This document shows positions 892-16,612 of a stretch of 16,612 nt of DNA, piece after piece; the stretch's first letter is position 1; every line of letters begins with the position of its first letter. The notes beneath the pieces were generated by a model. That model saw only the letters and a program-made list of their open reading frames with translations. It ran no database searches and had not been told where the DNA came from. A program made the translations under genes and the position numbers. Source of the DNA: a virus (Duplodnaviria; Heunggongvirae; Uroviricota; Caudoviricetes); the IMG/VR virus record IMGVR_UViG_2778261179_000013, positions 1 through 16,612 of that record. One strand, written 5' to 3'.

Positions 892-910
892 TCCCTTTGT
901 GACACCTATA

Positions 911-946: not shown

Positions 947-970
947 AATCAAGCATTTAGCTAACCTGAA

Positions 971-1115: not shown

Positions 1116-1137
1116 TGTATAAACATTTGTATAAACA
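1116..1137 (+). promoter_or_regulatory. Direct repeat TGTATAAACA x2 about 20 bp upstream of int; candidate promoter or recombinase/IHF-type site
   Basis: tgtataaaca at 1116-1125 and 1128-1137, within an AT-rich leader; a related tgtataaa lies near 1049. Confidence 0.3.
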
Positions 1138-1155
1138 CTTTGGGCTGGGTGGTCT

Positions 1156-2379
1156 ATGGCTGGCGAACTTAACAAACTGAGCGACAGGAAGTTAAAGGGA
1201 TTACATGGTATCCCGGCCAGTAAGATTGAGTTCTATGCTGATGGTGCCGGGCTGAGCGCCAAGGTAACTAAAGTTGGTGGTATTAGCTGGGTGTTTACTT
1301 ACCGACTCGACGGGCAGAAGCTGCATCGTCTTACTCTGGGACGATACCCGGATATGAGCCTCAAAGAGGCCCGTTCTTCGCGTGATAAATGCCGCCAATG
1401 GCTGGCCTCAGGTAAAGATCCAAAGCACCAGTTGGCGCTGACCACTCAGGAAACGCTTAAACCGGTCACTGTTAAGGAAGCTATCGAATACTGGATACGC
1501 GAATATGCAGAAGAGAACCGCGCGAATGTTGAAAGGCACAAAGCGGAGCTGCGTAAACACATTTATCCTTATATTGGGAAAATGGCGCTCGCTGACTGCG
1601 AAACCCGTTATTGGCTTGACTGCTTTGACAGGATGAAAAAGAAAACGCCAGTTGCTGCGGGTTATGTGTTCCAGATGTGCAAGCAAGCCCTGAAATTCTG
1701 CCGGGTTCGTCGCTATGCTGTGAGTACCGCGCTGGAAGATTTAACAATTCCAGATGTCGGTAAAAAACAGGCAAAAAAAGACCGGGTATTAAACGATAAA
1801 GAGGCTGGCGATTTATGGGCTGCCATTACCTCTGGAACTTGCTTCATGCCTTACTACACCAGGCTACTGACAATCTTAATGGTGTTTGGGTGCCGAACGC
1901 AGGAGGCCAGACTGTCAGAATGGAGTGAATGGGATATGGATGCCTGGGTCTGGACAGTTCCCAAAGAGCACAGCAAGGGCGGCGAGAAGATTGTAAGACC
2001 TGTGCCGGATGCCATGCGCAAATTCATTGAAATACTGCATGATGAAACGAAATTATCCGGCCTTTTGCTTGGGTCGGTTAAAGGCAGTGAAGCGGTAAGT
2101 CAGTGGGGCCGCGGTGTTTATAAAAAGCTGGGGCATTCTGAACCATGGACACTGCACGATCTAAGACGAACTTTAGCAACGCATATGAATAATATGGGTA
2201 TAGCACCACACGTTGTCGAACAGTTGTTGGGGCACTCAATGCCGGGAGTTATGGCGATTTATAACCGTAGTCTGTACTTGCCTGAGAAACTGGATGCGTT
2301 GAATAAATGGTATGACCGTCTCGATATTTTGGCGGGTAATCACTCGAATATTGTTATTTTAAAGGCTGGTGAGAAATGA
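1156..2379 (+). CDS. int: Tyrosine recombinase, P4-type phage integrase
   Basis: 407 aa. N-terminal arm-binding-type region (GLSAKVTKVGGISWVFTYRLDGQKLHRLTLGRYP), catalytic region with HDLRRTLATHM (HxxR) and the LGHSMPGVMAIYNRSLY tyrosine motif. Confidence 0.95.
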   Translation: MAGELNKLSDRKLKGLHGIPASKIEFYADGAGLSAKVTKVGGISWVFTYRLDGQKLHRLTLGRYPDMSLKEARSSRDKCRQWLASGKDPKHQLALTTQETLKPVTVKEAIEYWIREYAEENRANVERHKAELRKHIYPYIGKMALADCETRYWLDCFDRMKKKTPVAAGYVFQMCKQALKFCRVRRYAVSTALEDLTIPDVGKKQAKKDRVLNDKEAGDLWAAITSGTCFMPYYTRLLTILMVFGCRTQEARLSEWSEWDMDAWVWTVPKEHSKGGEKIVRPVPDAMRKFIEILHDETKLSGLLLGSVKGSEAVSQWGRGVYKKLGHSEPWTLHDLRRTLATHMNNMGIAPHVVEQLLGHSMPGVMAIYNRSLYLPEKLDALNKWYDRLDILAGNHSNIVILKAGEK

Positions 2380-2678
2380 AAAAGATAAATAAAATGACCG
2401 AATTACCGAAATGGTTTTCATTGGACAATTACAATTCTATCAATGGGCTGAGTGATCTTGATTTAATTAATCAGTTAGCTATGAGAATGGAAGTTGCTAA
2501 TGATGATTTTGAATGGCTTGATACCTATCCCGGAGCAAGAAATGAGTTCGCTTCATTTATGGAAGAAAGATTTAGTAACCCAATTCGGCCACTGAGCGGA
2601 AAATTATTTGCAGAAAAAATAAAAAGAAAAAATATTCTGAATGGCAAATGGATTCCGTCGGAGGTGTTGAGCCTTTAA
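2376..2678 (+). CDS. Hypothetical protein (AT-rich cargo ORF)
   Basis: 100-aa ORF whose ATG overlaps the int stop (ATGA at 2376-2379). Markedly AT-rich compared with the flanking genes. No motif recognised. Confidence 0.4.
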   Translation: MKKINKMTELPKWFSLDNYNSINGLSDLDLINQLAMRMEVANDDFEWLDTYPGARNEFASFMEERFSNPIRPLSGKLFAEKIKRKNILNGKWIPSEVLSL

Positions 2679-3163
2679 GATTAATTGATGTGATGCAGTT
2701 GTCTAAGAAAGCCGCTCATTATATTGATGAAAATAAAATTAATCGCTCATTGCGTGGACAAAAAAGGTCTGTAAGTAAGACCATAAGCGATAATGATCAA
2801 ATGCATATTACTTTAGATTTGTCTTGGCCTGATGAAATTTTATTAAGCGATTTGGCTGCATTGTTGCCAATATGGCGAATGGATCTTGAAAGGAAAAGTG
2901 AAAATAGTTGTAAGTTAAGTAATAGCTGGAGTGTAATCAAAAAGAAAATATTCGATTGCAAGATATTGCCAATGTTAGACCTTATGGAGTGGGCTAAAAT
3001 TAACAATGCAACAATCACTAACAGAGTTTTATCTTTAGCCCTGTTTCCTAATGCAGAGTATGACGCCATTGGTATCGCTCAAACGATCAAACCGTTCATT
3101 AGAAATTTTTCCGCAGATTTTTCTATAGAAATATTAAAGCGCAAAGCTATGGATTCATTTTAA
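2648..3163 (+). CDS. Hypothetical protein (AT-rich cargo ORF); start uncertain (alternative ATG at 2693)
   Basis: 171-aa ORF in a different frame, overlapping the previous ORF by 31 nt just after an A-rich run (2606-2632). Either a separate gene or the distal half of a frameshifted gene. No motif recognised. Confidence 0.45.
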   Translation: MDSVGGVEPLRLIDVMQLSKKAAHYIDENKINRSLRGQKRSVSKTISDNDQMHITLDLSWPDEILLSDLAALLPIWRMDLERKSENSCKLSNSWSVIKKKIFDCKILPMLDLMEWAKINNATITNRVLSLALFPNAEYDAIGIAQTIKPFIRNFSADFSIEILKRKAMDSF

Positions 3164-3266
3164 TCGGGAAATCCATATAGAAATAATTAAAAAATATCTA
3201 ATAGTGAACCATGCTTTTTAATAGCAAATAATAGCCTCCACAAAACGTAGAAACAGTGGAGGCAAC

Positions 3267-3551
3267 ATGCAAAATATCACCTTTATCCCGCCAAATCCTG
3301 AGCAGCGCCGCACCCTTTTAGAGGAGTACGGCTTTAAGTTCGACCGTCGAATCCGTGAAGAAGAATGTAGCGAGATCACCAGCCTTTCCCGTTCCAGCCG
3401 CTGGAAGATGGAACAGCAGGGGCGCTTCCCTCCGCGCTGTCACTTTGGCCGCAATAGCTGTGCCTGGCTTCTTTCGGATGTGCTCTGGTGGGTTCGTAAT
3501 CCGCCAGCAGTAGAGAACGTCAATAACCCGTACAGCCGCAAATCTGCTTAA
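3267..3551 (+). CDS. alpA: AlpA-family phage transcriptional regulator (helix-turn-helix)
   Basis: 94 aa. EITSLSRSSRWKMEQQGRFPPRCHFGRNSCAWLLSDVLWW matches the AlpA pattern (tGlSRst.Y ... G.FP ... G.rsv.W ... eV..Wl). GGAGG lies upstream of the ATG. Confidence 0.7.
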   Translation: MQNITFIPPNPEQRRTLLEEYGFKFDRRIREEECSEITSLSRSSRWKMEQQGRFPPRCHFGRNSCAWLLSDVLWWVRNPPAVENVNNPYSRKSA

Positions 3552-3571
3552 TTAACTACAGGTAATCGAAT

Positions 3572-4378
3572 ATGGAAAAAATAACTGCCTTGGCTGGCAG
3601 CGGCCAAACTCACCCCGAAACCAGCCAGAAAGATATTTCCAGCGATAATTTTGCTGCCCGGATCCCTGTAACCATGAGCACTATTGGTGGGAAAGAAACT
3701 CAGTCTGTAAGTGGTCGTAAGCTGCATACGTTTCTAGCTGTAGGGCGAGACTTTACCACCTGGATGAAAGCACGCATCAAACAGTATGGGTTTGTTAAAG
3801 GGGTTGATTATGTAATTGTTGAAGATTTGAGCACCCCAAAACGGGGGAGCGCAAAATCTCGCCAACAAGTCGAGCACGATTACATTGTCAGCCTGAATAT
3901 GGCTAAAGAGCTTTCTATGGTTGAGCGCAACGCGCAAGGCAAGATGGCCCGCCAGTATTTCATCGACTGTGAAGAACGTCTGCGCCGCGTAGCACCAGAG
4001 GAACATGAGGCGGCGTTGTTGGGCTGGCGTAAAAATCGTGTAGCTGCCTGCGAAGATCATAAGAGTATGGCCGATGCAATGAAGGGCTATATCGAGCGCA
4101 CCGGCGACAGGCAGCACGGCTTTGCCTACAGCAATGAATGCTCGTTCCTGAATAGCCTTGTGCTGGGTATGCACCCGCGAGTGTGGGCGAAACAGAAAGA
4201 AATTCCAGTTAAGCTGGTGCGTGACCATATGAACGCCGATCAGCTGGCGCTGCTGGCTTATCTGGAAAGCCGTGATTGTGCTCTGCTGGATCTTGATACC
4301 CGTACGGCAACCCGTAAGGCGAAACTCACCGAACTGGCACAACGCTGGCTGGTTAAGCGTGTTGGAGGTGCTGAGTGA
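3572..4378 (+). CDS. Phage antirepressor-like protein (AntA-type N-terminal domain)
   Basis: 268 aa. SGRKLHTFLAVGRDFTTWMKARIKQYGFVKGVDYVIV resembles the AntA/AntB antirepressor N-terminal motif (sARdLH.fL ... F..W ... ygF.eg.Dy). The C-terminal half is unassigned. Confidence 0.55.
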   Translation: MEKITALAGSGQTHPETSQKDISSDNFAARIPVTMSTIGGKETQSVSGRKLHTFLAVGRDFTTWMKARIKQYGFVKGVDYVIVEDLSTPKRGSAKSRQQVEHDYIVSLNMAKELSMVERNAQGKMARQYFIDCEERLRRVAPEEHEAALLGWRKNRVAACEDHKSMADAMKGYIERTGDRQHGFAYSNECSFLNSLVLGMHPRVWAKQKEIPVKLVRDHMNADQLALLAYLESRDCALLDLDTRTATRKAKLTELAQRWLVKRVGGAE

Positions 4379-4708
4379 TTTTGCATAACTCAATCAGGGT
4401 TGCGCAGAATTTGAGCCGACGAAATTCGCACGCGCAAATCAAGCTCGGTGATATGCCGAGTTTGAACAACCGCGTACTTTTAACGTACGGACATAGCAAC
4501 CCATTGAATCATCTTAATTATCGCGAAATGCGAGAATTGGCGAGCAACGAACACGAACAGTATTCGGGTTCGCCTGAACATCAACACTGCTTAGGTTCAG
4601 AGGTTCCGACGAATAACGTAGAGAGCTGCAATGGCAGCGCATTTTTGCTCTACGAGGGAAATCAACAACGTACAGTTTTGTACCGTAATCCAGATTTGGC
4701 TTACGAGA

Positions 4709-4768
4709 GGGTAGTACCTCAAAGTCACGAGGTTAACAGGGTAGTAACTCATAGTTACCAGGTTAACC
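4709..4768. repeat. Tandem direct repeat, 2 x 30 bp (25/30 identical), each unit containing GTTAAC
   Basis: gggtagtacctcaaagtcacgaggttaaca (4709-4738) and gggtagtaactcatagttaccaggttaacc (4739-4768). The units carry different internal stems (ACCTC/GAGGT in unit 1, GTAACT/AGTTAC in unit 2). Confidence 0.8.
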
Positions 4769-4877
4769 GCGTCGCTAAAAGATACGCGGAAAGCAAGACC
4801 TCTTTAAGAGGGGCAGTTCAGTGCGTGGAGACCTACGAAATTTTCGTAGGTCACAGCATTACCGAGAGTAACCCTGT

Positions 4878-5063
4878 TCAGCTTTCAGATTCCGATCTGG
4901 CTTTCTTGCGTTGGCGGCGTTTGATCTCGCATTGCATGGCTGTAACGATAAATTGGGCAGTGCTTTCGCCTTGCTCTTTAACTTGTTCCATTGCCTCGAC
5001 AACTTCATGCGGGGCACGAGTTTGCAATTTTTGTGATTTTTCGTTCTTTGTTCCCGTCGCCAT
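4878..5063 (-). CDS. Ribbon-helix-helix (Arc/CopG/MetJ-like) transcriptional regulator, probable island repressor
   Basis: 61 aa from the ATG at 5061-5063 (minus), preceded by AGGAGA with a 7-nt spacer. QKLQTRAP-HEVVEAMEQVKEQ-GES-TAQFIVTAMQCEI fits the RHH beta-strand / helix A / G-x-S turn / helix B pattern. The supplied ORF track starts it at a TTG at 5084. Confidence 0.65.
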   Translation of the reverse strand: MATGTKNEKSQKLQTRAPHEVVEAMEQVKEQGESTAQFIVTAMQCEIKRRQRKKARSESES

Positions 5064-5081
5064 TACTAAGTCTCCTGATAT

Positions 5082-5190
5082 CAAGTGGAGTACAGAATAC
5101 CAGAAAAATAATGAAATAAAACACTTGAAGTGGATTCCACTTTGTATTTATAGTGGAGTCCACCTTGAAGGGGTTCACCTTCAAGATATA
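5082..5190. promoter_or_regulatory. Divergent promoter/operator region with interleaved inverted repeats (half-sites AAGTGGA / TCCACTT and CACTT / AAGTG)
   Basis: cacttgaagtg (5122-5132) and aagtgga-t-tccactt (5128-5142) are overlapping palindromes; agtggagtccac (5152-5163) and ccttgaagg plus caccttcaag (5161-5185) follow. The region lies between the RHH gene and the rightward operon. Confidence 0.55.
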
Positions 5191-5261
5191 GCGAAGCCCG
5201 GCAGTGCGCGAACACTAACCGGGCCTCTGACCACCAAGATAGTTAACGTATCGAGGCAGCT

Positions 5262-5450
5262 ATGAAAGATTATATCACACACCCGCAAGGGCGGAAGTCC
5301 TACACCTGGCGTTTTCTGGCGCTGAGCGCCATCGGTCGCAACGTCATTCACATCAAAGCTACCACCGAACGCGAAGCCCGTGAGCAATCACCGGCTGGCT
5401 GCGTGATGGTATTCGCTGGCCGTCTGCCTGTGGAGGTGCGCCATGCGTGA
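5262..5450 (+). CDS. Hypothetical small protein (first gene of the rightward replication operon)
   Basis: 62-aa ORF with GAGG 5 nt upstream of the ATG; overlaps the next ORF. Confidence 0.5.
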   Translation: MKDYITHPQGRKSYTWRFLALSAIGRNVIHIKATTEREAREQSPAGCVMVFAGRLPVEVRHA

Positions 5451-5637
5451 GCCAATCAGCTTAGACCAGGCAGAATACAAATCAGCGCTGGCTGCTTCAC
5501 TTTTCGAAACCATTCTGGAAAAAGCCTGTGCTGAGTGTTCGGAAACCCTGCTGAACCATATCTCACTGGCATGTGACCTTAATCAGGAAATTCACCGGGC
5601 ATTAATCGCCGAGCTGGGTATGGGAGATGCGAAATGA
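5443..5637 (+). CDS. Hypothetical small protein
   Basis: 64-aa ORF with GGAGG 6 nt upstream of the ATG; its stop overlaps the next start (ATGA at 5634-5637). Confidence 0.5.
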   Translation: MREPISLDQAEYKSALAASLFETILEKACAECSETLLNHISLACDLNQEIHRALIAELGMGDAK

Positions 5638-5852
5638 GACAGGTTCCTTTTGAAGTCCTGATGCACGCTGAAAATGCCCTTTCTGAAAGCGAAGGAGCCT
5701 ATGAGGTTCTCAGCATGTGGCTAGACAGTATTCCTGAAGGCGAGGAGTTCCACGGTGAAGCGTGCAAGGTAAGCGCAATCATGTCGCTGCTGCATAAATC
5801 TATCGGCGAGCTGGTGAAAGCGCGGGAGGCTTACAGTGAAAAACGCGCCTAA
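5634..5852 (+). CDS. Hypothetical small acidic protein
   Basis: 72-aa ORF with GGAGA upstream; overlaps the start of the replication gene. Confidence 0.5.
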   Translation: MRQVPFEVLMHAENALSESEGAYEVLSMWLDSIPEGEEFHGEACKVSAIMSLLHKSIGELVKAREAYSEKRA

Positions 5853-7605
5853 CGTGAAAACCCTCCCACGCGACAAAATGGAGGAGGCCATCATCTTTGC
5901 CGGAACAGGAGCATGGAAAGCAGCTCAGGATTACCAGAAAGGTAAAGATGAGCATGGCGATGAGGTGCCGCCGGTTGTTCTGGATCATACCCAGCTGGCG
6001 GAATTACCCCACCTGCGCATTGTTGATAAAGGACGCCGATTTGCCCGTGTCTGTCAGGCCGGACTTATCGAACAAAACCAAATCAGTATGATTGCCAATA
6101 AGTTGTGTGAGGCTGGCGTTACCAATGCTGAGTTTATCAACGAAAAAGGTGAGAAAGAGGACTGGACGCCATTAATGAAGCGTCTGGAAGACGAGCCCCT
6201 AATGGTGACTACGAGGGGTAGCGCTACGCCAGCGCTTAACCAGATGGGAGCCAGCCAGCGCGGGGAAGTTCTGCTTGCTCATTACGATGGCAATCTGGCG
6301 ATCCATGCTGATTCCGACACGGTTCATCATTACAACGGCGTGGTGTGGGTTCCGCTTTCGGATAAAGAGCTGCAGCGAGAAATGGCGCAAATTTTTATTG
6401 ATGCCGAAGTCGCCTATTCGCAGAACGCGATTAAATCCGCTGTCGATACAATGAAGCTGGGTCTGCCAGTGATGGGTAACACAGCCCGAAATCTTATTGG
6501 TTTCAGCAACGGGGTTTTTGATACCCGGTTAGGGCAATTTCGACCACATGATAAAAAGGACTGGCTTATCGTTGCGAGCGAATTGCCATTCAGCGAACCA
6601 GCAGAAGGAGAGACTCTGGCAACCCATGCGCCGAACTTCTGGAAATGGCTCCGCCGCTCTGTGGCGGATAATGACAGAAAATCAGACCGCGTACTGTCTG
6701 CTCTGTTCATGGTGCTGGCGAACCGGTACGACTGGCAGCTGTTTCTTGAGGTAACGGGGCCGGGCGGAAGTGGTAAAAGTGTTATGGCTGAGATCTGCAC
6801 GATGCTGGCCGGCAAAGCCAATACGGTATCGGCAAGCATGGCGGCGCTGGAGAACCCAAGGGAAAGGGCGCTGGTGGTTGGCTATTCGCTGATTATCATG
6901 CCGGATATGACCCGGTACGCTGGCGACGGCGCAGGGATTAAAGCTATCACTGGCGGGGATAAGGTAGCTATCGACCCTAAACACAAAGCGCCGTATTCAA
7001 CGCGTATTCCGGCAGTGGTGCTGGCCGTCAATAACAATGCCATGTCATTCAGCGACCGAAGCGGTGGTATTTCGCGTCGTCGGGTTATTTTTAACTTCTC
7101 AGAGGTGGTACCGGAAAACGAACGTGATCCTATGCTTGCCGAGAAGATTGAAGGTGAGCTGGCCGTTATCATTCGCCACCTGCTTACTCGCTTTTCCAGA
7201 CAGGACGAGGCCAAACAGCTTTTGCATGAGCAGCAGAAATCAGAAGAGGCGCTGGCCATCAAACGTGAAGGGGATTCACTGGTGGACTTTTGCGGCTACC
7301 TGATGGCTTCGGTCGTATGTGATGGCATGTTTATCGGGAACGCCGAGATCGTACCGTTCAGCCCGCGCCGTTATCTGTATCACGCTTATCTGGCTTATAT
7401 GCGGGCTAACGGCCTGAGCAAGCCGGTGTCGCTGATGAGGTTCGGCACGGATATGCCAGGCGCAATGGCTGAATATGGCAAGGAGTACCAGAAGCGCAAA
7501 ACAAAACATGGCATAAGATCAAACGTCACACTTCACGACGATTCAGAAGACTGGATGCCTATGTGGAATGATACTTCTCACAATACCGGAGAAAATCAAA
7601 AGTAA
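5836..7605 (+). CDS. Replication initiator / SF3 helicase of the P4 alpha (D5-like) family (PICI pri-rep-like)
   Basis: 589 aa. Walker A VTGPGGSGKS, a Walker B-like LIIMPDMT region, and a D5_N-like segment (IGFSNGVFDTRLGQFRPHDKKDW). GTG start at 5836 is preceded by GGGAGG with a 7-nt spacer. No EGYATA-type primase motif seen in the N-terminal ~300 aa. Confidence 0.85.
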   Translation: MKNAPNVKTLPRDKMEEAIIFAGTGAWKAAQDYQKGKDEHGDEVPPVVLDHTQLAELPHLRIVDKGRRFARVCQAGLIEQNQISMIANKLCEAGVTNAEFINEKGEKEDWTPLMKRLEDEPLMVTTRGSATPALNQMGASQRGEVLLAHYDGNLAIHADSDTVHHYNGVVWVPLSDKELQREMAQIFIDAEVAYSQNAIKSAVDTMKLGLPVMGNTARNLIGFSNGVFDTRLGQFRPHDKKDWLIVASELPFSEPAEGETLATHAPNFWKWLRRSVADNDRKSDRVLSALFMVLANRYDWQLFLEVTGPGGSGKSVMAEICTMLAGKANTVSASMAALENPRERALVVGYSLIIMPDMTRYAGDGAGIKAITGGDKVAIDPKHKAPYSTRIPAVVLAVNNNAMSFSDRSGGISRRRVIFNFSEVVPENERDPMLAEKIEGELAVIIRHLLTRFSRQDEAKQLLHEQQKSEEALAIKREGDSLVDFCGYLMASVVCDGMFIGNAEIVPFSPRRYLYHAYLAYMRANGLSKPVSLMRFGTDMPGAMAEYGKEYQKRKTKHGIRSNVTLHDDSEDWMPMWNDTSHNTGENQK

Positions 7606-7860
7606 TGGGAAAAGTGTTCACCACTATTCACTGTGGATAAAATCGTTTATATAACAGATATTTAAGGGGTGAACACTTTTTATTGAAGTGTTCACCAAGT
7701 ATTCACCTGTTCACCTTTAAAGGGCTTTTCTTTTAAAAGGTGAAGGGTTAGGGTGAACACTAGTGAATACTTAAAATTATAGTCTTCACCCTGTAACCAT
7801 ATGAATTTGAATGGAAAAAATGCAAAGGTGAACAGGTGAACACTTAAACGCATATTTTTT
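7606..7860. repeat. Iteron array and AT-rich tract; putative origin of replication (P4 ori/crr-like)
   Basis: At least 10 copies of GGTGAACA(CTT) or its reverse complement (AAG)TGTTCACC, e.g. 7612-7622, 7668-7678, 7686-7696, 7709-7716, 7751-7760, 7826-7833, 7834-7844, plus variants (tattcacc, gtgaatac, cttcacc), followed by T-rich runs at 7852-7866. Placement immediately 3' of the replication gene is typical for these satellites. Confidence 0.75.
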
Positions 7861-7878
7861 ATTTTTACGAGGCTGCAT

Positions 7879-8223
7879 ATGGAAATTTTAGGCAACCATA
7901 ACGACAAGTTTCACGGCATCAAATTTCTGCATAGTGCAATTGAAGAAATGAATGAGAAAGCTGAAGTAACTCTGACCGACTATCTGGCTCTTAGGGCTTT
8001 TGTTCTGGCTGAGCGAAGAGAAACTCAGGACTACATTGATGCAATGGATGAAACGTATGCTGATTTGCCCGATGATCTGCGTTCTTACATTGAGCTTCTT
8101 AATGACGTTGCCGCACAGCTATCAAATCCATCACGCTCAAATGGGAATTTAAAATCAATTATTTACGATGCGAGAATATCAAGCGGAAACGCCATGTCTC
8201 ACTGGTTCAGTGTTGATAGATAG
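7879..8223 (+). CDS. Hypothetical protein (AT-rich cargo, gene 1 of a two-gene cassette)
   Basis: 114-aa ORF with ACGAGG 6 nt upstream of the ATG. Acidic and predicted helical; no motif recognised. Compositionally distinct from the flanking replication and head genes. Confidence 0.55.
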   Translation: MEILGNHNDKFHGIKFLHSAIEEMNEKAEVTLTDYLALRAFVLAERRETQDYIDAMDETYADLPDDLRSYIELLNDVAAQLSNPSRSNGNLKSIIYDARISSGNAMSHWFSVDR

Positions 8224-8246
8224 TAAAATCTAAGAAGGGATAACTA

Positions 8247-9092
8247 ATGCGTACTAATGATGATTTACAGATAATCCGAAAGCATCTGGATGGTGAATTT
8301 GAACAGCGCCTGTTAGACGCTGCGATCAATAACCTTTTGGATGAAAATAATCAGCTTCGGTTCAGCAATTATGCCTATGCACTTAGAGAGCTATTCTTAC
8401 ACGTTCTAAAACGCATGGCACCTGATGAAAATGTTCAACTATGCGAGTGGTTTCCTGGTTTGAATGAAAGAGAGCAGGTTGCAAGAAAAGACTCTTACAA
8501 ATATATCATTCATGGTGGGTTAAGTGATGAATATGTCAGGGATGTACTTGATGTAAATATTGCCGGAGTAATTCCGGGATTGCGTGATGCGTTCTACTCA
8601 TTAAATAAATTTACTCACATAAGCGAAAAGATTTTTCCAATTAATGATGACGATGGCCTAAAAATGGTGGGAGAGGTTGAAGGTTGCATCGGAGCTCTTT
8701 TCACCAAGCTTGATGAGTGTCATAAGGAGATAATTAATAAGCTTTATGAAGCTGTGAGTGAGGCCGCGATACATAGTTCGATAACTGAAACTGTAACATC
8801 AATTGATATTTTATCGACACACAGCTCGGTTGATGAAGTGTATGTTGATGATGTGAAAATAGTAGAAATAAATGACTCTGAAGTAATTTTCTCTGTTAGT
8901 GGCTCTGTAGGTGTCGGGTTGCAATGGGGATCTAATTCCGATTTGCGAAATGACATAGGTGCTGTAGGTAGAGAAACATTCCCATTTACCTGCGAGGTGA
9001 GAAGTCCAGTGTATGCCCCTGAACGTTTAGAGTGTGATGAAGGGGCATTCCATGCAGATACTTCAAGTTGGTGGGAAGGATATTACGACTAA
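8247..9092 (+). CDS. Hypothetical protein (AT-rich cargo, gene 2 of a two-gene cassette)
   Basis: 281-aa ORF with AAGAAGGGA upstream of the ATG. Helical N-terminal region containing an R-x4-H motif (RELFLH) and a beta-rich C-terminal region. Followed by an intrinsic terminator. Confidence 0.6.
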   Translation: MRTNDDLQIIRKHLDGEFEQRLLDAAINNLLDENNQLRFSNYAYALRELFLHVLKRMAPDENVQLCEWFPGLNEREQVARKDSYKYIIHGGLSDEYVRDVLDVNIAGVIPGLRDAFYSLNKFTHISEKIFPINDDDGLKMVGEVEGCIGALFTKLDECHKEIINKLYEAVSEAAIHSSITETVTSIDILSTHSSVDEVYVDDVKIVEINDSEVIFSVSGSVGVGLQWGSNSDLRNDIGAVGRETFPFTCEVRSPVYAPERLECDEGAFHADTSSWWEGYYD

Positions 9093-9128
9093 CAAGTGTA
9101 AATTATTCGTCCTCGCGTTTATTAGTGC

Positions 9129-9160
9129 TTAGCCCGATAAAATTCGGGCTTTTATTTATT
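9129..9160 (+). terminator. Rho-independent terminator after the cargo cassette
   Basis: Stem agcccg (9131-9136) / cgggct (9145-9150) with an 8-nt loop, followed by tttatttatt (9151-9160). Confidence 0.6.
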
Positions 9161-9324
9161 ATTTTCATGTATATGTTGAGAAGTGGCACTCAGACGTGAG
9201 CCGCCACTGGCCGTTAAATCAAGCTGTAGCGAGTACAGCCTGTGGGATGCAGAAAAAGATTTAACGGCCTCCCCTCCAAGCGCTGGTTTCACGTCTCTAC
9301 GTTAATTGATACGGAAACCACTCC

Positions 9325-10491
9325 ATGAAGAAACTACTCGAATTACGCCAGCAGAAAGCCACACTCAAAACCCAGATGCGTTCCATGCTGGACAAAGCCG
9401 ACACCGAAAAGCGCAGCCTGAACGAAGAAGAGGGCAAAAAGTTCGATGAACTCCGCGCCCAGGCTGATGCGCTTGAAGTTGAAATTACCCGCCTCGAAGC
9501 CGTCGCCGACGATCAGCGCAATCTGCCTGGTACTTCCGTTGAAGGTGAGCTAGTAAGCAACGACGAGCTGCGTCACTACATTATGACCGGTGATACCCGT
9601 TCTCTCTCCACGCTGGTGCAGGCTGACGGCGGTTATACCGTTATTCCTGAACTGGACAAAGAGATCATGCGTCAGTTGCAGGATGATAGCGTGATGCGCT
9701 CCATCGCAACGGTAAAGACCACCAAAACCAACGAATACCAGAAACTGGTATCTGTGGGCGGCACTACCGTTAAGCGCGGTACCGAAGGCGAAGCGCGTAC
9801 CGAAACCAGCACGCCGAAGATGGAGCGTGTTGATATCAAACTCAACCCGATCTACGCCTATCCGAAAACCACTCAGGAAATTCTCGACTTCTCTGAGGTG
9901 GATATTCTGGGCTGGCTGTCTTCTGAAATTGCCGACACCTTCACCGCTACCGAAGAGAGCGACTTTGTGAACGGCGACGGTGATAAAAAATCCAAAGGGT
10001 TCCTGTCTTACCCTCGCGCGGCCACAGCCGATAAAACCCGCCCGTTCGGTACGCTGGAGAAGATGGAAGCTGCTGACGTTTCCTCTGATGGCCTGATCGA
10101 CCTGCTGTATAAGCTGAAAGCCAAATACCGCAAAAACGCCGTATGGGTGATGAACTCCAATACCGCGGCCAAACTGCAAAAGCTGAAAAACGGCAACGGG
10201 GATTACATCTGGCGAGATCGTCTGGTTGCCGGTTCTCCCGATACGCTGCTGGGCCGTCCGGTTCAATATCTCGAAACCATGCCAGATGCGGAAGCAGGTG
10301 AAGCGTTCCTTGCTGTGGGCGACTTCAAACGCGGCTATTTCATCGTGGATCACACCACTGGTGTGCGTACCCGTCCTGACAACATCACCGAACCGGGTTT
10401 CTACAAGGTACATACCGATAAATACCTGGGCGGCGGCGTGGTGGACTCCAACGCCATCAAGGTGCTTGAGCTTTCCGGCTCCGGTTCCTGA
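9325..10491 (+). CDS. Major capsid protein, HK97 family (with N-terminal delta/scaffold-like coiled coil)
   Basis: 388 aa. N-terminal coiled-coil region (LELRQQKATLKTQMRSMLDKADTEKRSLNEEEGKKFDELRAQADALEVEITRLEA) and HK97-MCP-like core blocks (GGYTVIPE ... AVWVMNSNTAAKLQKLKNGNGDYIW ... LLGRPV ... GDFKRGYFIVDH). Confidence 0.9.
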   Translation: MKKLLELRQQKATLKTQMRSMLDKADTEKRSLNEEEGKKFDELRAQADALEVEITRLEAVADDQRNLPGTSVEGELVSNDELRHYIMTGDTRSLSTLVQADGGYTVIPELDKEIMRQLQDDSVMRSIATVKTTKTNEYQKLVSVGGTTVKRGTEGEARTETSTPKMERVDIKLNPIYAYPKTTQEILDFSEVDILGWLSSEIADTFTATEESDFVNGDGDKKSKGFLSYPRAATADKTRPFGTLEKMEAADVSSDGLIDLLYKLKAKYRKNAVWVMNSNTAAKLQKLKNGNGDYIWRDRLVAGSPDTLLGRPVQYLETMPDAEAGEAFLAVGDFKRGYFIVDHTTGVRTRPDNITEPGFYKVHTDKYLGGGVVDSNAIKVLELSGSGS

Positions 10492-10539
10492 TTTGACGTT
10501 TGAGGGGCTTAGGCCCCTTTTCTCCTGTGGAGTCCAACA

Positions 10540-11100
10540 ATGAAAACAATTGATTTTGAAATCCGCACCTCCGATCTGAGCGCCAGTAACAAAAAGCTGG
10601 TGGGCTATGCCGTGCGCTGGAACAGTCTCTCTGAAATTATCTGGGACGAGTTCCGCGAGCAGTTTGCGCCGGGAGCGTTTAAAGACAGCCTGGCATCAGG
10701 TAGCGATGTGCGTGCGCTGTACGAGCATAACTATACCCAGCTGCTGGGCCGCACTAAATCCGGAACGCTGGTGCTGTCCGAAGACGATACCGGGCTGCGC
10801 TTCGAGCTGACCCCGCCGAATACCCAGCTTGGTAACGATGTGCTGGAGCTGGTGGAGCGTGGTGATATCTCCGGCATGAGCTTTGGTTTCCGGGCGCTGA
10901 AAGAGGCGTGGGATATCGGCCAGTCTCCATACCTGCGCACTGTTACCGCAGCCGAACTGCGGGAGATTACCGTTACCTCTATGCCTGCTTATCCTGAGTC
11001 TGGCGTGGAAATCGCGCACCGTTCGCTTTTCTCCCAACATCCTGAACTGCGCCGCGCTGGCGATAACCGTCGCCGCTGGGCTGAATTAGCGGGGCTCTGA
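10540..11100 (+). CDS. Prohead maturation protease, HK97 family (S78-like)
   Basis: 186 aa. LVGYAVRWNS ... FAPGAFKDSL ... LYEHNY ... GMSFGF fits the HK97 prohead protease pattern, including the candidate His and Ser residues. Confidence 0.85.
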   Translation: MKTIDFEIRTSDLSASNKKLVGYAVRWNSLSEIIWDEFREQFAPGAFKDSLASGSDVRALYEHNYTQLLGRTKSGTLVLSEDDTGLRFELTPPNTQLGNDVLELVERGDISGMSFGFRALKEAWDIGQSPYLRTVTAAELREITVTSMPAYPESGVEIAHRSLFSQHPELRRAGDNRRRWAELAGL

Positions 11101-11101
11101 T

Positions 11102-12337
11102 ATGTGGAATATCTGGCCGTTTGGCCGCAAGTCTGAACCCTCTGAGCAGCGCAGCATGACCATTGATGAATTTCTGGCGATGGCAGGGATTCCAAATACC
11201 GGATCAGGCGAGTATGTGTCTGCGGGTACTGCGGAATCTCTGCCGGCGGTCATGAACGCCGTATCAGTTATCAGTGAGGCGGTGGCAACAATGCCATGCT
11301 ATCTCTACCGCGTCCGTAATGATAATGGTCGTGAGGCGCGAGAATGGCTGAGTAATCACCCGGTGGATTTTCTCCTGAACGAGCAGCCGAACGACTGCCA
11401 GACGCCTTATCAGTTTAAACGCACGATGATGCGCCATTGTCTGCTGAACGGTAACGCCTATGCGGTGATCCAGTGGGGCCGCGACGGCCAGCCGCAATCC
11501 CTGCACCCGTATGCGCCGGGGGCGGTTGTTCCTGAGCGTATCGGCCAGCATAAGTACAAATACACCGTTACAGAGCCGTTTACCGGGGCTGTGCGCACCT
11601 ATCTACAGGAAGAGATTCTGCACCTGCGTTACTCCACCGATGATGGCTTTCTGGGGCGTTCGCCTATTACTACGTGCCGTGAGGCGCTGGGGTTAGGTCT
11701 GGCCCAACAGCGCCACGGTGCCAGCATTATGAAAGATGGCATGATGGCGGCGGGCGTCGTCACTACTGCTGAATGGCTCGACAGCGTGAAGGGTAAGCAG
11801 GCTCTGGACGCACTGGAGCGCTACAAAGGTGCCAGAAATGCCGGGAAAACGCCGATCCTTGAAGGTGGCATGGATTATAAGCAGCTGGGCATGAGCAATC
11901 AGGATGCCGAATGGCTGGCCTCTCGTCGCTTCACCATTGAAGACATTGCCCGCATGTTCAACGTGTCGCCTATCTTCCTGCAGGAATACAGCAACAGCAC
12001 CTACAGCAATTTCAGCGAAGCGAGCCGCGCCTTTCTTACCATGACGATGCGCCCGTGGCTGGCGAACTTCGAACAACAAATCAAATCTGCGCTGCTGGTG
12101 GCCTCCCCAGTCCCAGGAACCCGTTATCAGGTGGAGTTTGACTCTGCTGACCTTCTCCGCGCCACGCCAACCGAACGTTATGCCACTTATGAGCGCGGTA
12201 TTAAGAACGGGATCATGAACCCGAACGAAGCCCGAGAGCGTGAGGGGATGCCACCGCGTGAAGGTGGTGACGAATTCAGCCAGGCATGGAAGCAGGAAGT
12301 GAAGATCAGCAAAGACGGCAAGGAAGGTGACGCATGA
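11102..12337 (+). CDS. Portal protein, HK97 family
   Basis: 411 aa. Conserved blocks LLNGNAYAVI, GFLGRSPI, FTIEDIARMFNVSPIFLQE and NPNEAREREGMPP match the HK97-type portal pattern. Its start is 2 nt after the protease stop. Confidence 0.9.
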   Translation: MWNIWPFGRKSEPSEQRSMTIDEFLAMAGIPNTGSGEYVSAGTAESLPAVMNAVSVISEAVATMPCYLYRVRNDNGREAREWLSNHPVDFLLNEQPNDCQTPYQFKRTMMRHCLLNGNAYAVIQWGRDGQPQSLHPYAPGAVVPERIGQHKYKYTVTEPFTGAVRTYLQEEILHLRYSTDDGFLGRSPITTCREALGLGLAQQRHGASIMKDGMMAAGVVTTAEWLDSVKGKQALDALERYKGARNAGKTPILEGGMDYKQLGMSNQDAEWLASRRFTIEDIARMFNVSPIFLQEYSNSTYSNFSEASRAFLTMTMRPWLANFEQQIKSALLVASPVPGTRYQVEFDSADLLRATPTERYATYERGIKNGIMNPNEAREREGMPPREGGDEFSQAWKQEVKISKDGKEGDA

Positions 12338-12672
12338 GAGCCGGGGGGCTGAGAAGCCGCGTCACTATTCGGGTATTCACTACCCACAGGGAGCCGTCCG
12401 GTCAGGTTGTTCAGGTCTGGGAAGACGGGGAAACCATATGGGCTGAGGTTAAGGGGATCAGTGGCCGAGAGTTAATGGCGTCAGGTGCCGAGGTTGCCGA
12501 AGCGACGATCCGCGTTTGGGTGCGTTTCCGCCGTGATATTACCGCAGCCAACCGTCTGAAAGTGCTTACTGGCCCGTTTGCTGGCAGCACTCTCAATATT
12601 ATCGGGCCTCCTATTCCTGATTCGGAAGGTACCCGGCTGGAAATTCTCTGCAAGACAGGAACGGAAAAATGA
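12334..12672 (+). CDS. Head-tail adaptor / head closure protein (SPP1 gp16-like)
   Basis: 112 aa; RVTIRVFTTHREPSGQVVQVWEDGETIWAEVKGISGRE fits the head-tail joining family pattern. ATGA overlap with the portal gene. Confidence 0.7.
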   Translation: MRAGGLRSRVTIRVFTTHREPSGQVVQVWEDGETIWAEVKGISGRELMASGAEVAEATIRVWVRFRRDITAANRLKVLTGPFAGSTLNIIGPPIPDSEGTRLEILCKTGTEK

Positions 12673-12962
12673 CAGCAGAAATCACCCTGGATGAAGCAAA
12701 GCTGCATTGCCGTATTGATGATGATTACGAAGATACGTTGATACAGGCGTACATCGATGCGGCGCTGGAGGTTTGCCAGAAGCATATCGGCAAGCGGTTT
12801 GATAACGGGCTGGAGTTTACGCCAGCTATCAAGATTGGCTGTCTGATGTACGTATCTCAGCTGTACGAGTACCGCACGATGATTGGTGATACCGACGCCA
12901 AAGAGATACCGATGGCTGTCTCTGCGTTGTGGTCTGTCTATCGTGATGTGGGGGTGTACTGA
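12669..12962 (+). CDS. Head-tail connector protein (gp6-like)
   Basis: 97 aa; ITLDEAKLHCRIDDDYEDTLIQAYIDAALEVCQKHIGKR ... YEYR fits the gp6-like connector pattern. ATGA overlap with the upstream gene. Confidence 0.7.
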   Translation: MTAEITLDEAKLHCRIDDDYEDTLIQAYIDAALEVCQKHIGKRFDNGLEFTPAIKIGCLMYVSQLYEYRTMIGDTDAKEIPMAVSALWSVYRDVGVY

Positions 12963-13405
12963 TGCCGTGGCAACCACTACGCCGGTGCAATGAGCCTGGA
13001 TGTAATAAACGGGTGAAGTCTGGCAAGTGTGACGAGCATAAGCGGGATGCCCGCCGACAAAGCGACAGCCGAAGAGGTACGCGAACAGAGCGTGGTTACT
13101 CCAACCGCTGGGGCGAATACCGTCGTCATTTTCTAAAAGCTAATCCGCTGTGTGTCCATTGTCTCAAGGCTGGCGTCTATGCATCGGCAACTATCGTCGA
13201 TCACATCATCCCTATCGAGGGTGAAGCTGATGTGCTGTTCTGGCCCGCCAGTAATCACCAGTCGTTATGCGCTGCCTGTCATGGACGGAAGACAACCACA
13301 ACAGACCCGGTGACGAAGCAGCAGCGTAAAGCCGGTAAGTTCCGCGAGCAGGAAGAAGCAGCACGTCATCGCACCGACTGGATCTATGAGGCAAACAATG
13401 ACTGA
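12962..13405 (+). CDS. HNH endonuclease (packaging-associated)
   Basis: 147 aa. Cys-rich N-terminus (CNEPGCNKRVKSGKCDEH) and an HNH core (CVHC ... DHIIPIEGEADVLFWPASNHQSLCAACHGRKT). Position next to the terminase genes is typical of HNH-cos packaging systems. Confidence 0.85.
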   Translation: MPWQPLRRCNEPGCNKRVKSGKCDEHKRDARRQSDSRRGTRTERGYSNRWGEYRRHFLKANPLCVHCLKAGVYASATIVDHIIPIEGEADVLFWPASNHQSLCAACHGRKTTTTDPVTKQQRKAGKFREQEEAARHRTDWIYEANND

Positions 13406-13550
13406 GCAGGAACAGCAGCGGCTGATTAGTGGGCTGATAAAGCAGCGTGAGTCATGGCAACCAGCCAGACAGAGAGCGCATAAGAAGCCCGTAGCAAAGC
13501 GCATGAGCCAGCGTGACCGGGAGCTTATGGAATGCTTTCGCAACCGCTGA
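13398..13550 (+). CDS. Possible small basic protein (50 aa), unannotated in the ORF track
   Basis: The ATG at 13398 overlaps the HNH gene end and the frame is open to the TGA at 13548-13550, giving MTEQEQQRLISGLIKQRESWQPARQRAHKKPVAKRMSQRDRELMECFRNR. Below the track's length cut-off; low support. Confidence 0.3.
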   Translation: MTEQEQQRLISGLIKQRESWQPARQRAHKKPVAKRMSQRDRELMECFRNR

Positions 13551-13680
13551 CAGGCCGAATGGACGGGGTGGGGGAGGTTTTAAAGACAAACCCCTCTCAG
13601 CGAGGAACCACCCGCCCCCTCAAATTTTTACGCACGGTGATTTTTTTGAAAATAAAACGCGACGGAAACGAGAAATTTTT

Positions 13681-14037
13681 ATGGCAAGACCACCCAAACC
13701 GCCAGCTTACCTTGATGAGTTAGCTGCGCAGCAGTGGAAAGCGAAGGCGAAGCAACTGGCGGAGCGCGGGGATTTGACTCCCGCCGACTGGAACAACCTT
13801 GAGCTTTTTTGCGTCAACTATTCGATGTACCGCAAAGCCGTGGAAGACCTTGCCAGCCGTGGGTTCAGCATTGTTAACAGCCAGGGCGGTGAGAGCCGAA
13901 ATCCGGCGCTGAGCGCAAAGGCCGATGCTGAAAAAATCATGATTAAAATGTCGTCGCTGCTGGGCTTTGATCCGGTAAGCCGCCGCCGGAACCCGGTGGA
14001 AACGGAGGAGGAAGACGAGCTTGACCGTCTGGAATGA
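13681..14037 (+). CDS. terS: Terminase small subunit (P27-family-like)
   Basis: 118 aa from the ATG at 13681: MARPPKPPAYLDELAAQQWKAKAKQLAERGDLTPADWNNLELFCVNYSMYRKA ... The track ORF from 13513 adds an implausible Gly-rich N-terminal extension, so the internal ATG is preferred. Confidence 0.8.
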   Translation: MARPPKPPAYLDELAAQQWKAKAKQLAERGDLTPADWNNLELFCVNYSMYRKAVEDLASRGFSIVNSQGGESRNPALSAKADAEKIMIKMSSLLGFDPVSRRRNPVETEEEDELDRLE

Positions 14038-15682
14038 GTACGCAAACGCGATAAAAACGGGCGAAATTCCGGCCTGTAAGCGCGTAAAACAGGCCGTGGA
14101 AAGGTACTTTTCAGACCTGAATGACCCCCGTTATGTGTTCGATACGGCGACCGTAGAGCGGTTTATTGCGTTCTCGCGGCTCTGTCCTCACGTCAAAGGC
14201 CCGTTGCGCGGGCAGTCTATCGAGCTGGAGCCGTGGCAGCAGTTCGCCTTTGCTAACCTGCTGGGCTTTAAAGTCAGGGAGTCAGGCCGCCGGAAGTATA
14301 GCAGCGCCTTTATTGAGGTGCCGCGCAAGAATGCCAAATCCACCGTGGCCGCCATGCTGGCTAACTGGTTTCTGGTGATGGAGAAGGGCCAGCAGGATAT
14401 CTACACGGCGGCGGTAAGCCGGGATCAGGCCCGAATCGTGTTCGACGATGCCCGCCAGATGTGCCTGCTGTCAAAACCGCTGAAAAAGCGCGTCAGTATT
14501 CAGGCACACAAGGTCATTTTCCCGAAGAGCAACAGCCTGTTAAAGCCGCTGGCGGCAAAAGCGGCCACCATTGAAGGGACTAACCCCAGCCTGGCGATTG
14601 TCGATGAGTACCACCTTCACCCGGATAACGGCGTTTATTCCGCGCTTGAGCTGGGTATGGGCGCCCGTCCTGAGGCAATTTTGTTCGCCATCACTACCGC
14701 CGGGAGTAACGTAGTCTCGGCCTGTAAGCAGCATTATGACTACTGCTGCCAGATTCTGGCAGGGGAAGAGAGCAACGATTCTCTGTTTGTCCTGATATAC
14801 GAGCTGGACGACGAAATTGAGGTTGAGCAGCCGGAAATGTGGATTAAGGCCAACCCTAACCTGCATGTGTCTGTTGACGCAGCGAAGCTGGAATCCACCA
14901 TCCAGAAAGCGCGGGGGATACCGTCGCAATGGGTGGAAATGCTCACCAAACGTTTCAATATCTGGTGTCAGGGCTCCACGCCGTGGATGGGGGCTGGCGC
15001 GTGGGATGCCTGTGCACTCGACTATAACGAAGAAGAGCTGGTCGGAATGGAGTGTTATGCCGGGTTTGACCTGTCCTCAACCAGCGATATCACCAGCGTG
15101 AGTTACGCTTTCCCGTTTGACAGGGAGATCCGGCTTCTGACCCGCCACTATCTACCGGAAGCGCAACTGCTTAACGTCGCCAACAAAAACCGCGCCATCT
15201 ATCGCCAGTGGGTAAAAACGGGCTGGATACGCACCACACCCGGCGACTGTATCGACTATGACCGCATTCGTGACGATATCCTGCGCGATGCTGAAACCTT
15301 CAATATTCGGCTGGTGGGCTTTGATACGTGGAACGCTACGCATCTGCGCACCCAGCTACAGGGTGCGGGCCTTGATGTTGAGCCATTCCCGCAAACCTAT
15401 CTCAGGTTCAGTCCGGTAGCGAAATCCTTTGAAGTGTTTGTTAACCGCAGGGTAGTGCGCCATCGCGGTGATCCGGTTCTGGCCTGGGCGATTGGTAACG
15501 TGGTGATGGAGTCCGACGCCAATGCCAACATCAAGCCCAACAAAAAGAAATCCTCCAACAAGATAGATCCGGCTGTGTCTGCGTTAATGGCGTTTGGCAC
15601 CTTCCAGGCTGAGCACGAGGATTTTGCATTTGATATGAGTGACAGTCACAAACAACGGCTAGCTGATTTCAATGGGCTTTGA
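14021..15682 (+). CDS. terL: Terminase large subunit
   Basis: 553 aa. Walker A-like EVPRKNAKST, Walker B-like LAIVDEYH and a C-terminal nuclease-type region. Apparent TTG start at 14021 overlapping the terS end, so the start codon is uncertain. Confidence 0.9.
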   Translation: MTVWNEYANAIKTGEIPACKRVKQAVERYFSDLNDPRYVFDTATVERFIAFSRLCPHVKGPLRGQSIELEPWQQFAFANLLGFKVRESGRRKYSSAFIEVPRKNAKSTVAAMLANWFLVMEKGQQDIYTAAVSRDQARIVFDDARQMCLLSKPLKKRVSIQAHKVIFPKSNSLLKPLAAKAATIEGTNPSLAIVDEYHLHPDNGVYSALELGMGARPEAILFAITTAGSNVVSACKQHYDYCCQILAGEESNDSLFVLIYELDDEIEVEQPEMWIKANPNLHVSVDAAKLESTIQKARGIPSQWVEMLTKRFNIWCQGSTPWMGAGAWDACALDYNEEELVGMECYAGFDLSSTSDITSVSYAFPFDREIRLLTRHYLPEAQLLNVANKNRAIYRQWVKTGWIRTTPGDCIDYDRIRDDILRDAETFNIRLVGFDTWNATHLRTQLQGAGLDVEPFPQTYLRFSPVAKSFEVFVNRRVVRHRGDPVLAWAIGNVVMESDANANIKPNKKKSSNKIDPAVSALMAFGTFQAEHEDFAFDMSDSHKQRLADFNGL

Positions 15683-15718
15683 TAGTGCTTGAACTTTTCA
15701 AATTGTCACTGTAATTCT

Positions 15719-16612
15719 TTAATATTCGACTTGCTGAGCCGGAACGGAGTTTAAAATCCAGCATTCTTGATGGACAAAATTTATATTCAGAGCAGATAAA
15801 TATTGTTGCTCATATGCTCTGTATATTAATAGTTTTGTTTGATTCTGATCATCCAATTCATAATCCGTTTTTGCAGTGCTCCATTGGGAGTGAAGCATTA
15901 CTGATTGAACAAAGGAGTTCATCTTTATACTCATGTTCATTACATTTGAAGATGTTCCGGCATATTTGTATGAGTCGATTACCGTGTTTTTTCCATCGCC
16001 ATCAACATCGAAAGGATTGGATATCCACTTGAATGTATTTAACAAAAAAAGATTGGCGACCCAAGTGTAATCGTTGCCGTTTATATTTTCTGTGGTAGAA
16101 GAGCTAATGCTTTCATGGAGATTGGTTGCCCCCATGAAAATCGCCTCAGGATCTATCTTTCCGTCAGACCTTCGCTGCCTTCCGGCTGCTAAGTAATTGA
16201 AAATGCCAGCATAACACTGCCCCATATATACTATCGCTCTATCTAAATCTGGCGTTGTTTTTATGCGATTAAGTAACCTATAGGGCGGTATTGGTGGGAG
16301 GGCGTCCAATCCATGCATACTTCCATGACCCGTTATAAATATAACTATATTATCATGGGTATTATCGTCGCAATCCGAAAAAAATTCGCTGCTTCTTTTT
16401 ACATTATATTGATGGTTAGTGCCAACTGAGATTAATTTTTGTATATTTCCTCTGTTGTTTCCATCTATATAAATAAAAATATCAGCAGGATTAATTCCAC
16501 GATTTTCTAAGCAGTAAATCCCAAAGGCCAGATCAGAAACATGCCGATCTTCCGGCTCACTGCTGGAAGCCAAAAAAAGAACCCATTTTGTTTTGTCTGC
16601 TAATAGCCCCAT
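15719..16612 (-). CDS. Caspase-like (clan CD, C13/C14-type) peptidase-domain protein; N-terminus at the window edge, possibly partial
   Basis: 297 aa on the minus strand with stop at 15719-15721 and ATG exactly at 16610-16612. Clan CD layout: hydrophobic strand ending in His-Gly (NIVIFITGHG) followed about 38 residues later by a strand ending in the catalytic-type Cys (AIVYMGQCYAG). AT-rich and convergent with terL. Confidence 0.6.
   Translation of the reverse strand: MGLLADKTKWVLFLASSSEPEDRHVSDLAFGIYCLENRGINPADIFIYIDGNNRGNIQKLISVGTNHQYNVKRSSEFFSDCDDNTHDNIVIFITGHGSMHGLDALPPIPPYRLLNRIKTTPDLDRAIVYMGQCYAGIFNYLAAGRQRRSDGKIDPEAIFMGATNLHESISSSTTENINGNDYTWVANLFLLNTFKWISNPFDVDGDGKNTVIDSYKYAGTSSNVMNMSIKMNSFVQSVMLHSQWSTAKTDYELDDQNQTKLLIYRAYEQQYLSALNINFVHQECWILNSVPAQQVEY

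Follow-up and report, generated by a model that had tools for sequence, protein, structure and literature searches.

Head and packaging genes at the fis locus of Escherichia coli follow the known gene order of Proteobacterial phage-inducible chromosomal islands of the capsid-forming type

The stretch of DNA analyzed here (the window; 16,612 nt) covers positions 1 to 16,612 of the IMG/VR virus record IMGVR_UViG_2778261179_000013, which is classified within the Caudoviricetes. Positions 9325-15682 are very probably the capsid and packaging operon of a phage-inducible chromosomal island of the Proteobacterial capsid-forming type (cf-PICI) of ~16.4 kb, integrated at the 3' end of the Escherichia coli gene fis, and none of the evidence gathered here contradicts this identification. 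A preliminary description of the window, made from the sequence alone, pointed to a non-canonical order of the head and packaging genes. That reading is correct but not new: the operon layout is already published for cf-PICIs, so novelty is low even though the observation is confirmed and its interpretation supported. The window adds one more member to a described, experimentally characterized family, and the gene order is of practical use as a marker that tells cf-PICIs apart from phages with the same protein families and from remnants of prophages.

Genes were called from a map of open reading frames (ORFs) combined with Pfam and PHROG profile searches, and all eight operon genes pass the Pfam gathering scores. 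The genes all reside on the + strand with intact reading frames, and the profile matches to their products are full length. The operon begins with a major capsid protein of the HK97 fold (9325-10491; PF05065, 7e-69; phrog_10; PDB 9gyi_B ‘Major head protein’, 1.8e-159), followed by an S78 prohead serine protease (10540-11100; PF04586, 1e-47; phrog_80) and a portal protein (11102-12337; PF04860, 1.6e-96; phrog_12). The fourth gene encodes the tail-facing head closure protein Hc1 of the SPP1 gp16 type (12334-12672; Phage_HCP PF05521, 3e-22; phrog_25; PDB 2kz4, 8.5e-38) and the fifth the head-tail adaptor Ad1 of the HK97 gp6 type (12669-12962; Phage_connect_1 PF05135, 1e-11; phrog_40, 3e-34); He et al. 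(bioRxiv 10.1101/2025.02.11.637232) name these two proteins ‘adaptor’ and ‘connector’, respectively. The last three genes encode an HNH endonuclease, a packaging accessory of HNH-dependent cos terminases (12962-13405; PF01844; phrog_144, 3e-39), the small terminase TerS of the P27/Terminase_4 family (13681-14037, using the start annotated in RefSeq; PF05119, 9e-25) and the large terminase TerL with its ATPase and nuclease domains (14021-15682; PF03354 and PF20441; phrog_9, 3e-175). RefSeq products of a 99.9% identical E. coli genome agree with these identities. Pfam and PHROGs thus bear out the eight gene identities and the single strand given in the preliminary description, and lead to no reassignment of capsid, protease or portal that would make the order canonical. 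Its statement that the genes are tightly coupled holds for the junctions from protease through HNH and for TerS/TerL (1 nt apart or overlapping by 1-17 nt), but not for capsid/protease, which are separated by a 48-nt spacer, or for HNH/TerS, with 275 nt between the end of HNH (13405) and the annotated TerS start (13681). A longer TerS ORF from a GTG at 13513 probably has the wrong start; RefSeq begins TerS at the equivalent of 13681.

This layout corresponds to published accounts of cf-PICIs. According to Alqurainy et al. (bioRxiv 10.1101/2022.09.08.507074), the Proteobacterial cf-PICIs read ‘capsid-protease-portal-head connectors’ and then ‘hnh-terS-terL’. These authors also state that phage and PICI modules ‘have different genetic organisations’ and show by mutation that the module genes of EcCIEDL933 are required for transfer, which is abolished in each case with the exception of one small hypothetical gene. 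He et al. use the cf-PICI gene list as an identification criterion, and de Sousa et al. call the cf-PICI organization ‘very conserved’. In the window, morphogenesis genes come first and hnh-terS-terL second, in an element whose length falls within the ~10-18 kb of a discrete island. Identity of the packaging proteins to their counterparts in the E. coli O157:H7 ATCC 43888 island, which stands in for EcCIEDL933, is 53-81%, and the published range for identity to EcCIEDL933 is 50-90%.

The island ends are precise. A 16-bp core, ATTAGTTCATGCCGTA, which duplicates the 3' end of fis, is present as a direct repeat at both ends (L001:3645 and 20031); the left attachment site (attL) copy lies at 970-985 (+) of the window, and the right (attR) copy adjoins fis ~740 nt past the window end. 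When the flanks are joined across one copy of ATTAGTTCATGCCGTA, the resulting 335-nt sequence has a 100% match in island-free E. coli, and among 5426 complete E. coli genomes this reconstructed empty site is contiguous (≥80% covered) in 5309. The pair of att cores, together with the reconstructed empty site, defines an island of ~16.4 kb seated in the fis 3' end. Another candidate for the att site, a 20-bp direct repeat, TGTATAAACATTTGTATAAA, was rejected once reconstruction of the empty site had pointed to the 16-bp fis core. The 20-bp repeat lies just inside both island ends, nested within the core pair (window 1116-1135; L001:19945-19964), and may be an arm-type binding site of the integrase. 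Over 16.6 kb, the window differs from E. coli ABW_S38 by 18 mismatches and 1 indel (99.9% identity). Coverage of the 6.4 kb operon region reaches at least 80% in 171 complete E. coli genomes.

Upstream of the operon is a PICI-type backbone of integrase, AlpA-type regulator and primase, all recognized by Pfam. The region encodes a tyrosine integrase (1156-2379, +; Arm-DNA-bind_3 and Phage_integrase), a DUF6387 protein, an AlpA-family regulator (3267-3551, +; Phage_AlpA, 4e-10), an AntA-like protein, small regulators, the D5-type primase/helicase of the replication module (5836-7605, +; D5_N, DUF5906 and Pox_D5) and two accessory proteins. No tail or lysis family was detected with Pfam and PHROGs in the remaining ORFs (main island ORFs of ≥62 amino acids and two genes between TerL and attR), and the annotated region up to attR also contains no tail or lysis genes. 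Other known element types do not fit these data: a classical Gram-negative PICI (EcCICFT073 type) would not have the portal, Hc1, Ad1 and TerL found here, which the PICI model of de Sousa et al. lists as ‘forbidden’ components; a complete HK97-like temperate phage would have tail, lysis and immunity modules and the canonical order; and a PICI embedded in its helper would not reside at a chromosomal site such as the fis 3' end.

The difference from phages lies in how the same genes are arranged. The canonical order is HNH-TerS-TerL-portal-protease-capsid-Ad1-Hc1, while that of the window is capsid-protease-portal-Hc1-Ad1-HNH-TerS-TerL. HNH-TerS-TerL is intact, and two units have their internal order reversed with the strand kept, namely the portal-protease-capsid block and the adaptor pair, in agreement with the initial claim that this is not a circular permutation. 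Since the blocks are reversed without a change of strand, inversion cannot produce the order; several transpositions or separate acquisitions are needed. The synteny comparison proposed with that claim, against HK97-like phages and capsid-forming islands, gave different orders in the phages and the window order in the cf-PICIs. HK97-like phages with HNH-dependent cos packaging (e.g., a lambdoid prophage of E. coli O177:H21 and Yersinia phage YeP1) have the same eight families and the same HNH-TerS-TerL trio as the window, but they have tail genes after Hc1, lysis genes and genomes of ~40 kb, none of which applies to the island. Their proteins are ~23-38% identical to those of the window, except for the Hc1 of some prophages (64%). 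Both arrangements meet in the O177:H21 genome (L325), in which the HNH, TerS and TerL 5' part of the lambdoid prophage are followed by a cf-PICI in satellite order, and then by the prophage TerL 3' part, portal, protease, capsid, connector, head closure and tail completion genes.

The generality of the order was surveyed at loci around relatives of the portal, in one-genome-per-species bacterial contigs (GTDB) and in IMG/VR, with the eight genes placed by tblastn and duplicate modules removed. All eight genes occur in the window order in 181 non-redundant loci (45 from GTDB and 136 from IMG/VR), and an order that is identical in so many loci is not due to chance. Among the other loci there is no Hc1 match in 17 (GTDB) and 20 (IMG/VR), 15 and 28, respectively, are cut by a contig end and are consistent with the window order, and 2 and 8 have some other arrangement; duplications, frameshift splits or the genes of a neighboring prophage account for these last ten. 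The canonical phage order was found in none of the cf-type loci of either database. The hosts belong to the Enterobacterales, Orbales (Gilliamella, Frischella) and Pasteurellales, and across these three orders the arrangement is invariant, which upholds the suggestion in the preliminary description that it is a signature of the island family. As a control, 78 of 80 IMG/VR loci with phage-level portals fit the canonical TerL-portal-capsid order; the two exceptions (L364 and L333) are high-GC contigs. One variation on the module was observed in Xenorhabdus kozodoii (L031:1489-5099), where the capsid gene and part of the protease gene are tandemly duplicated ahead of an otherwise normal module.

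Portal sequences also set the clade apart. In an exhaustive search of representatives, the cf clade is separate, with representatives at 57%, 46% and 42% identity followed by a continuum at ≤39%; the representative at 57% (P0121) has no close relative in IMG/VR. In phage databases, portal identity exceeds 60% only in two records with cf-PICI layout (15.3 kb and 16.5 kb), a 3.8 kb fragment and a 106 kb Klebsiella phage record, and is ≤33% in the remaining records. LR881103, ‘Escherichia phage vB_KppS-Ant’ (L002; 16.5 kb), and OR544139, ‘Pasteurella phage Pmp8’ (L003; 15.3 kb), are filed as phages and have the size, backbone and gene order of cf-PICIs. As deposited, the gene after TerL in LR881103 carries the label ‘tail length tape measure protein’, and one Pmp8 gene the label ‘tail terminator’; these are labels only.

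Head genes without tail genes are also what deletion could leave of a decayed, rearranged HK97-like prophage, in which case the island would be a remnant and not a functional satellite. This is very improbable given the eight intact frames, the recurrence of the layout at the 181 loci in three gammaproteobacterial orders, the precise att ends with a PICI-type backbone and the experimental mobility of relatives. A further argument against a remnant is that the module proteins are 97-100% identical in a near-identical island of Enterobacter hormaechei and the portal is 100% identical in E. hormaechei and Intestinirhabdus alba, in agreement with reported cross-genus spread. An artefact of annotation or assembly, such as genes actually on the opposite strand or a misassembled inversion, has nothing in its favor; we regard it as scarcely credible in view of full-length profile matches on the + strand, the 171 complete E. 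coli genomes and independent assemblies from many genera.

In module content and order, the closest described islands are cf-PICIs of the EcCIGN02175 / KpCIDSM30104 type (He et al.), matched here by their description. Compared with the Klebsiella-type LR881103, Hc1 of the window is 43% and Ad1 87% identical, mirroring the values of He et al. for ‘adaptor’ (50%) and ‘connector’ (83%). Hc1 is the most divergent module protein in this comparison; HNH is 61% identical and most others are 87-98% identical. The accessory genes differ from those of the EcCIGN02175 / KpCIDSM30104 type, as the window has the AntA-like protein, an orphan nuclease of the Argonaute-associated type and the DUF6387 gene (frameshifted). 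The prototype cf-PICI, EcCIEDL933, for which the O157:H7 island between roxA and phoQ serves as proxy, shares this order and likewise has a small ORF between HNH and terS. Relative to this proxy, the window island has an integrase with only 50% identity, an att site in fis instead of the roxA/phoQ region, a D5-type instead of a DUF927-type replication protein and other accessory genes. The two groups of cf-PICIs in Firmicutes (Alqurainy et al.) are, like the window island, tail-less with their own capsid and terminase genes, but unlike it they begin with portal-protease-capsid in one group and with HNH-TerS-TerL in the other; Alqurainy et al. infer independent origins for them.

The interval between HNH and terS contains a conserved ORF of 54 amino acids (13386-13550, +; phrog_3173, 5e-17) that overlaps the HNH 3' end and terminates directly ahead of a putative cos region. 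An ORF at the same position is annotated in the O157:H7 island and in LR881103, and is unannotated in the closest RefSeq genome; it may be the counterpart of the one dispensable ‘hypothetical’ module gene of Alqurainy et al. The following 130 nt (13551-13680) are non-coding and contain the motifs GGGTGGGGGAGGT, ACCgCCCGCCCCCTCAAATTTTTACG and ATTTTTTTGAAAATAA, in that order, which are kept across 137 distinct sequences. A repeat search in the HNH-terS gap returned only short, unconvincing repeats. LR881103 is a linear record from an induced element; its first position is 22 nt before terS and its last is within the first motif, GGGTGGGGGAGGT. Cohesive ends are described for cf-PICI DNA (He et al.). 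Conservation, together with this one linear record, suggests that 13551-13680 is probably the cos site. If so, packaged DNA would have terS-terL at its start and the head genes and HNH at its end, comparable to HK97-type phages, which have HNH at the right end.

LR881103 does not contain 69 nt of cos-region DNA that is present in its close relative L011, which limits the placement of cos; with these nucleotides missing, the ends of this record give weak support as mapped cos ends. No sigma-70-like promoter was detected upstream of the capsid gene, in a crude consensus scan whose total counts were at the level of shuffled sequence. A terminator-like hairpin at 9131-9150 (+), which is a consensus scan match only, would close the upstream accessory genes at the start of the head and packaging region. 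An Rfam scan of the whole window gave zero matches.

By homology to cf-PICIs that have been studied experimentally, induction by a helper phage would lead to excision and replication of the island through its own integrase, AlpA regulator and primase. The capsid protein, protease and portal would then build the island's own small HK97-fold capsids, and its HNH-TerS-TerL would package island DNA from its own cos. Ad1 and Hc1 would close the head and set which helper tails can dock; in the islands of He et al., adaptor and connector decide which phage tails are compatible, and the capsids have T=4 symmetry with 240 capsid subunits.

The literature notes, without explaining it, that the head genes run in inverted order compared with all phage relatives. 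The full order, capsid-protease-portal-Hc1-Ad1-HNH-(small ORF)-cos-TerS-TerL, has been inherited and conserved within the satellite lineage and is not a recent rearrangement. Our best guess, and the default view, is that it is simply the arrangement of the founder, which overlapping or abutting frames and a need for HNH-cos-TerS-TerL to stay together beside attR may have kept fixed.

The order could instead be adaptive, with genes arranged from the most to the least abundant product, such that a single promoter and natural polarity would provide appropriate amounts without phage-style late regulation. It is indeed monotonic in expected copy number (~240 capsid subunits, protease, 12-mer portal and connectors, catalytic HNH, TerS, TerL), there is a single terminator-like hairpin before the capsid gene and no internal sigma-70-like promoter on the + strand was found in the operon. 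The capsid-protease-portal start also survives in distant lineages that moved or lost other genes. However, phages reach the same stoichiometry with the opposite order, the cf-PICIs of Firmicutes function with portal-protease-capsid or HNH-TerS-TerL first, and the promoter scan is a crude consensus test; we consider an adaptive order unlikely.

Alternatively, the order could record a stepwise capture of genes. An ancestral PICI residing within helper late genes could have taken left-flanking genes one at a time through imprecise excision, adding each to its right end; singly captured genes would be reversed in order with their strand retained, and HNH-TerS-TerL would be kept as one block. Islands in a suitable position exist, in the form of cf-PICIs embedded in prophage terL and co-oriented with the late operon, and Tommasini et al. 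2023 (PMC10111431) report that late genes of prophages are a repeated target of one integrase clade, and they propose capture of helper late genes by PICIs. The 64% identity of a prophage Hc1 to that of the window, compared to 23-36% for portal and capsid, points to exchange of single genes. Nevertheless, about six ordered events would be needed, insertion in the middle of genes would capture truncated copies, and, apart from Hc1, no module protein exceeds ~35% identity to any phage, in a clade that looks old and shows no intermediate. We regard this route as improbable, and the founder arrangement remains our default explanation.

The embedded relatives encode a different integrase (~45% identity) and lie inside terL of lambdoid HNH-cos prophages, co-oriented with the late operon. 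Examples include L325:20564-37769 (E. coli O177:H21, NZ_CP016546), and L167:8763-11185 with L147:14768-15493, in which terL is split at PHROG_9 profile position 448|449. Of 19 IMG/VR loci, 17 have the embedded junction, which also occurs in 36 complete E. coli genomes. For some loci with a second head module downstream of TerL, a duplication or a phage-satellite hybrid was considered; both were rejected, as this module belongs to a prophage whose terL is interrupted by a cf-PICI. Tommasini, Mageeney and Williams 2023 (PMC10111431) have published helper-embedded PICIs with the terminase target A:Terminase_1:245, without using the term cf-PICI, and the capsid-forming nature of these embedded elements may not have been stated before.

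A cf-PICI sub-lineage without an Hc1 gene is represented by L147:10001-11507 and ~30 loci in all (e.g., L018, L025, L066, L069, L113 and L148), with Ad1 within 30 nt of portal. For most of these loci, a hidden Markov model built from seven Hc1 sequences had no hit in the rest of the retrieved DNA other than to prophage-encoded copies. In L147, L149 and L154, Hc1 of the surrounding prophage is the one with 64% identity to that of the window, and Hc1-less islands may borrow the Hc1 of their helper.

The capsid-protease-portal core is kept in lineages at ~40-45% portal identity. A marine lineage (45%) begins in the same way, with some members that do not encode adaptors, HNH or TerL. The island L187:6974-17689, on an IMG/VR metagenome contig with 41% GC, has only capsid, protease, portal and TerS, with primase and integrase on the opposite strand; TerL, HNH and adaptors are absent, and its capsid side is flanked by host-type GH97 and beta-lactamase-like genes. 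The related L191 has capsid-protease-portal-HNH-TerS-TerL and no adaptors. Both look like reduced, undescribed variants of capsid-encoding satellites. Among the high-GC exceptions in the control, L364:269-10371 (11 kb, 65% GC) has an integrase, a primase-like gene and capsid-protease-portal-HNH-TerS-TerL-Hc1, with Hc1 after TerL rather than after portal, and L333 has capsid-protease-portal-HNH with a weak integrase match upstream. Marine low-GC and high-GC islands may belong to a set of capsid-encoding satellites wider than the gammaproteobacterial cf-PICIs. It is a tentative idea, and one we think has a small chance of being correct, that the capsid-protease-portal start was invented once, long ago, in this wider set and was kept either for expression or as a record of stepwise capture.

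With respect to structure, the next solved relatives of the window capsid (9325-10491) after PDB 9gyi are capsids of the Rhodobacter gene transfer agent (6tb9 and 6tba, ~1e-50), and the HK97 capsid itself is absent among the solved-structure matches at E ≤ 1e-5.

Several observations concern cargo. Two reverse-strand genes between TerL and attR (15719-16612, -; L001:19312-19614, -) are in a low-GC stretch (~39% in the profiled part). One has no function recognized by Pfam, PHROGs or PADLOC, the other matches only an uncharacterized PHROG, and they are probably accessory cargo. The DUF6387 gene beside the integrase (2376-3163, +) is split by a 1-nt deletion into ORFs at 2376-2678 and 2648-3163, and is intact (789 nt) in ABW_S38. 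Just before the head operon, the gene at 8247-9092 (+) has a full-length match to Argonaute-associated nucleases (PADLOC Aga_Nuclease, 7e-84; Pfam pP_pnuc_1 and pP_pnuc_2), with no Argonaute gene nearby. It may encode an orphan nuclease for defence, lying in the variable slot in which immune genes of cf-PICIs are expected.

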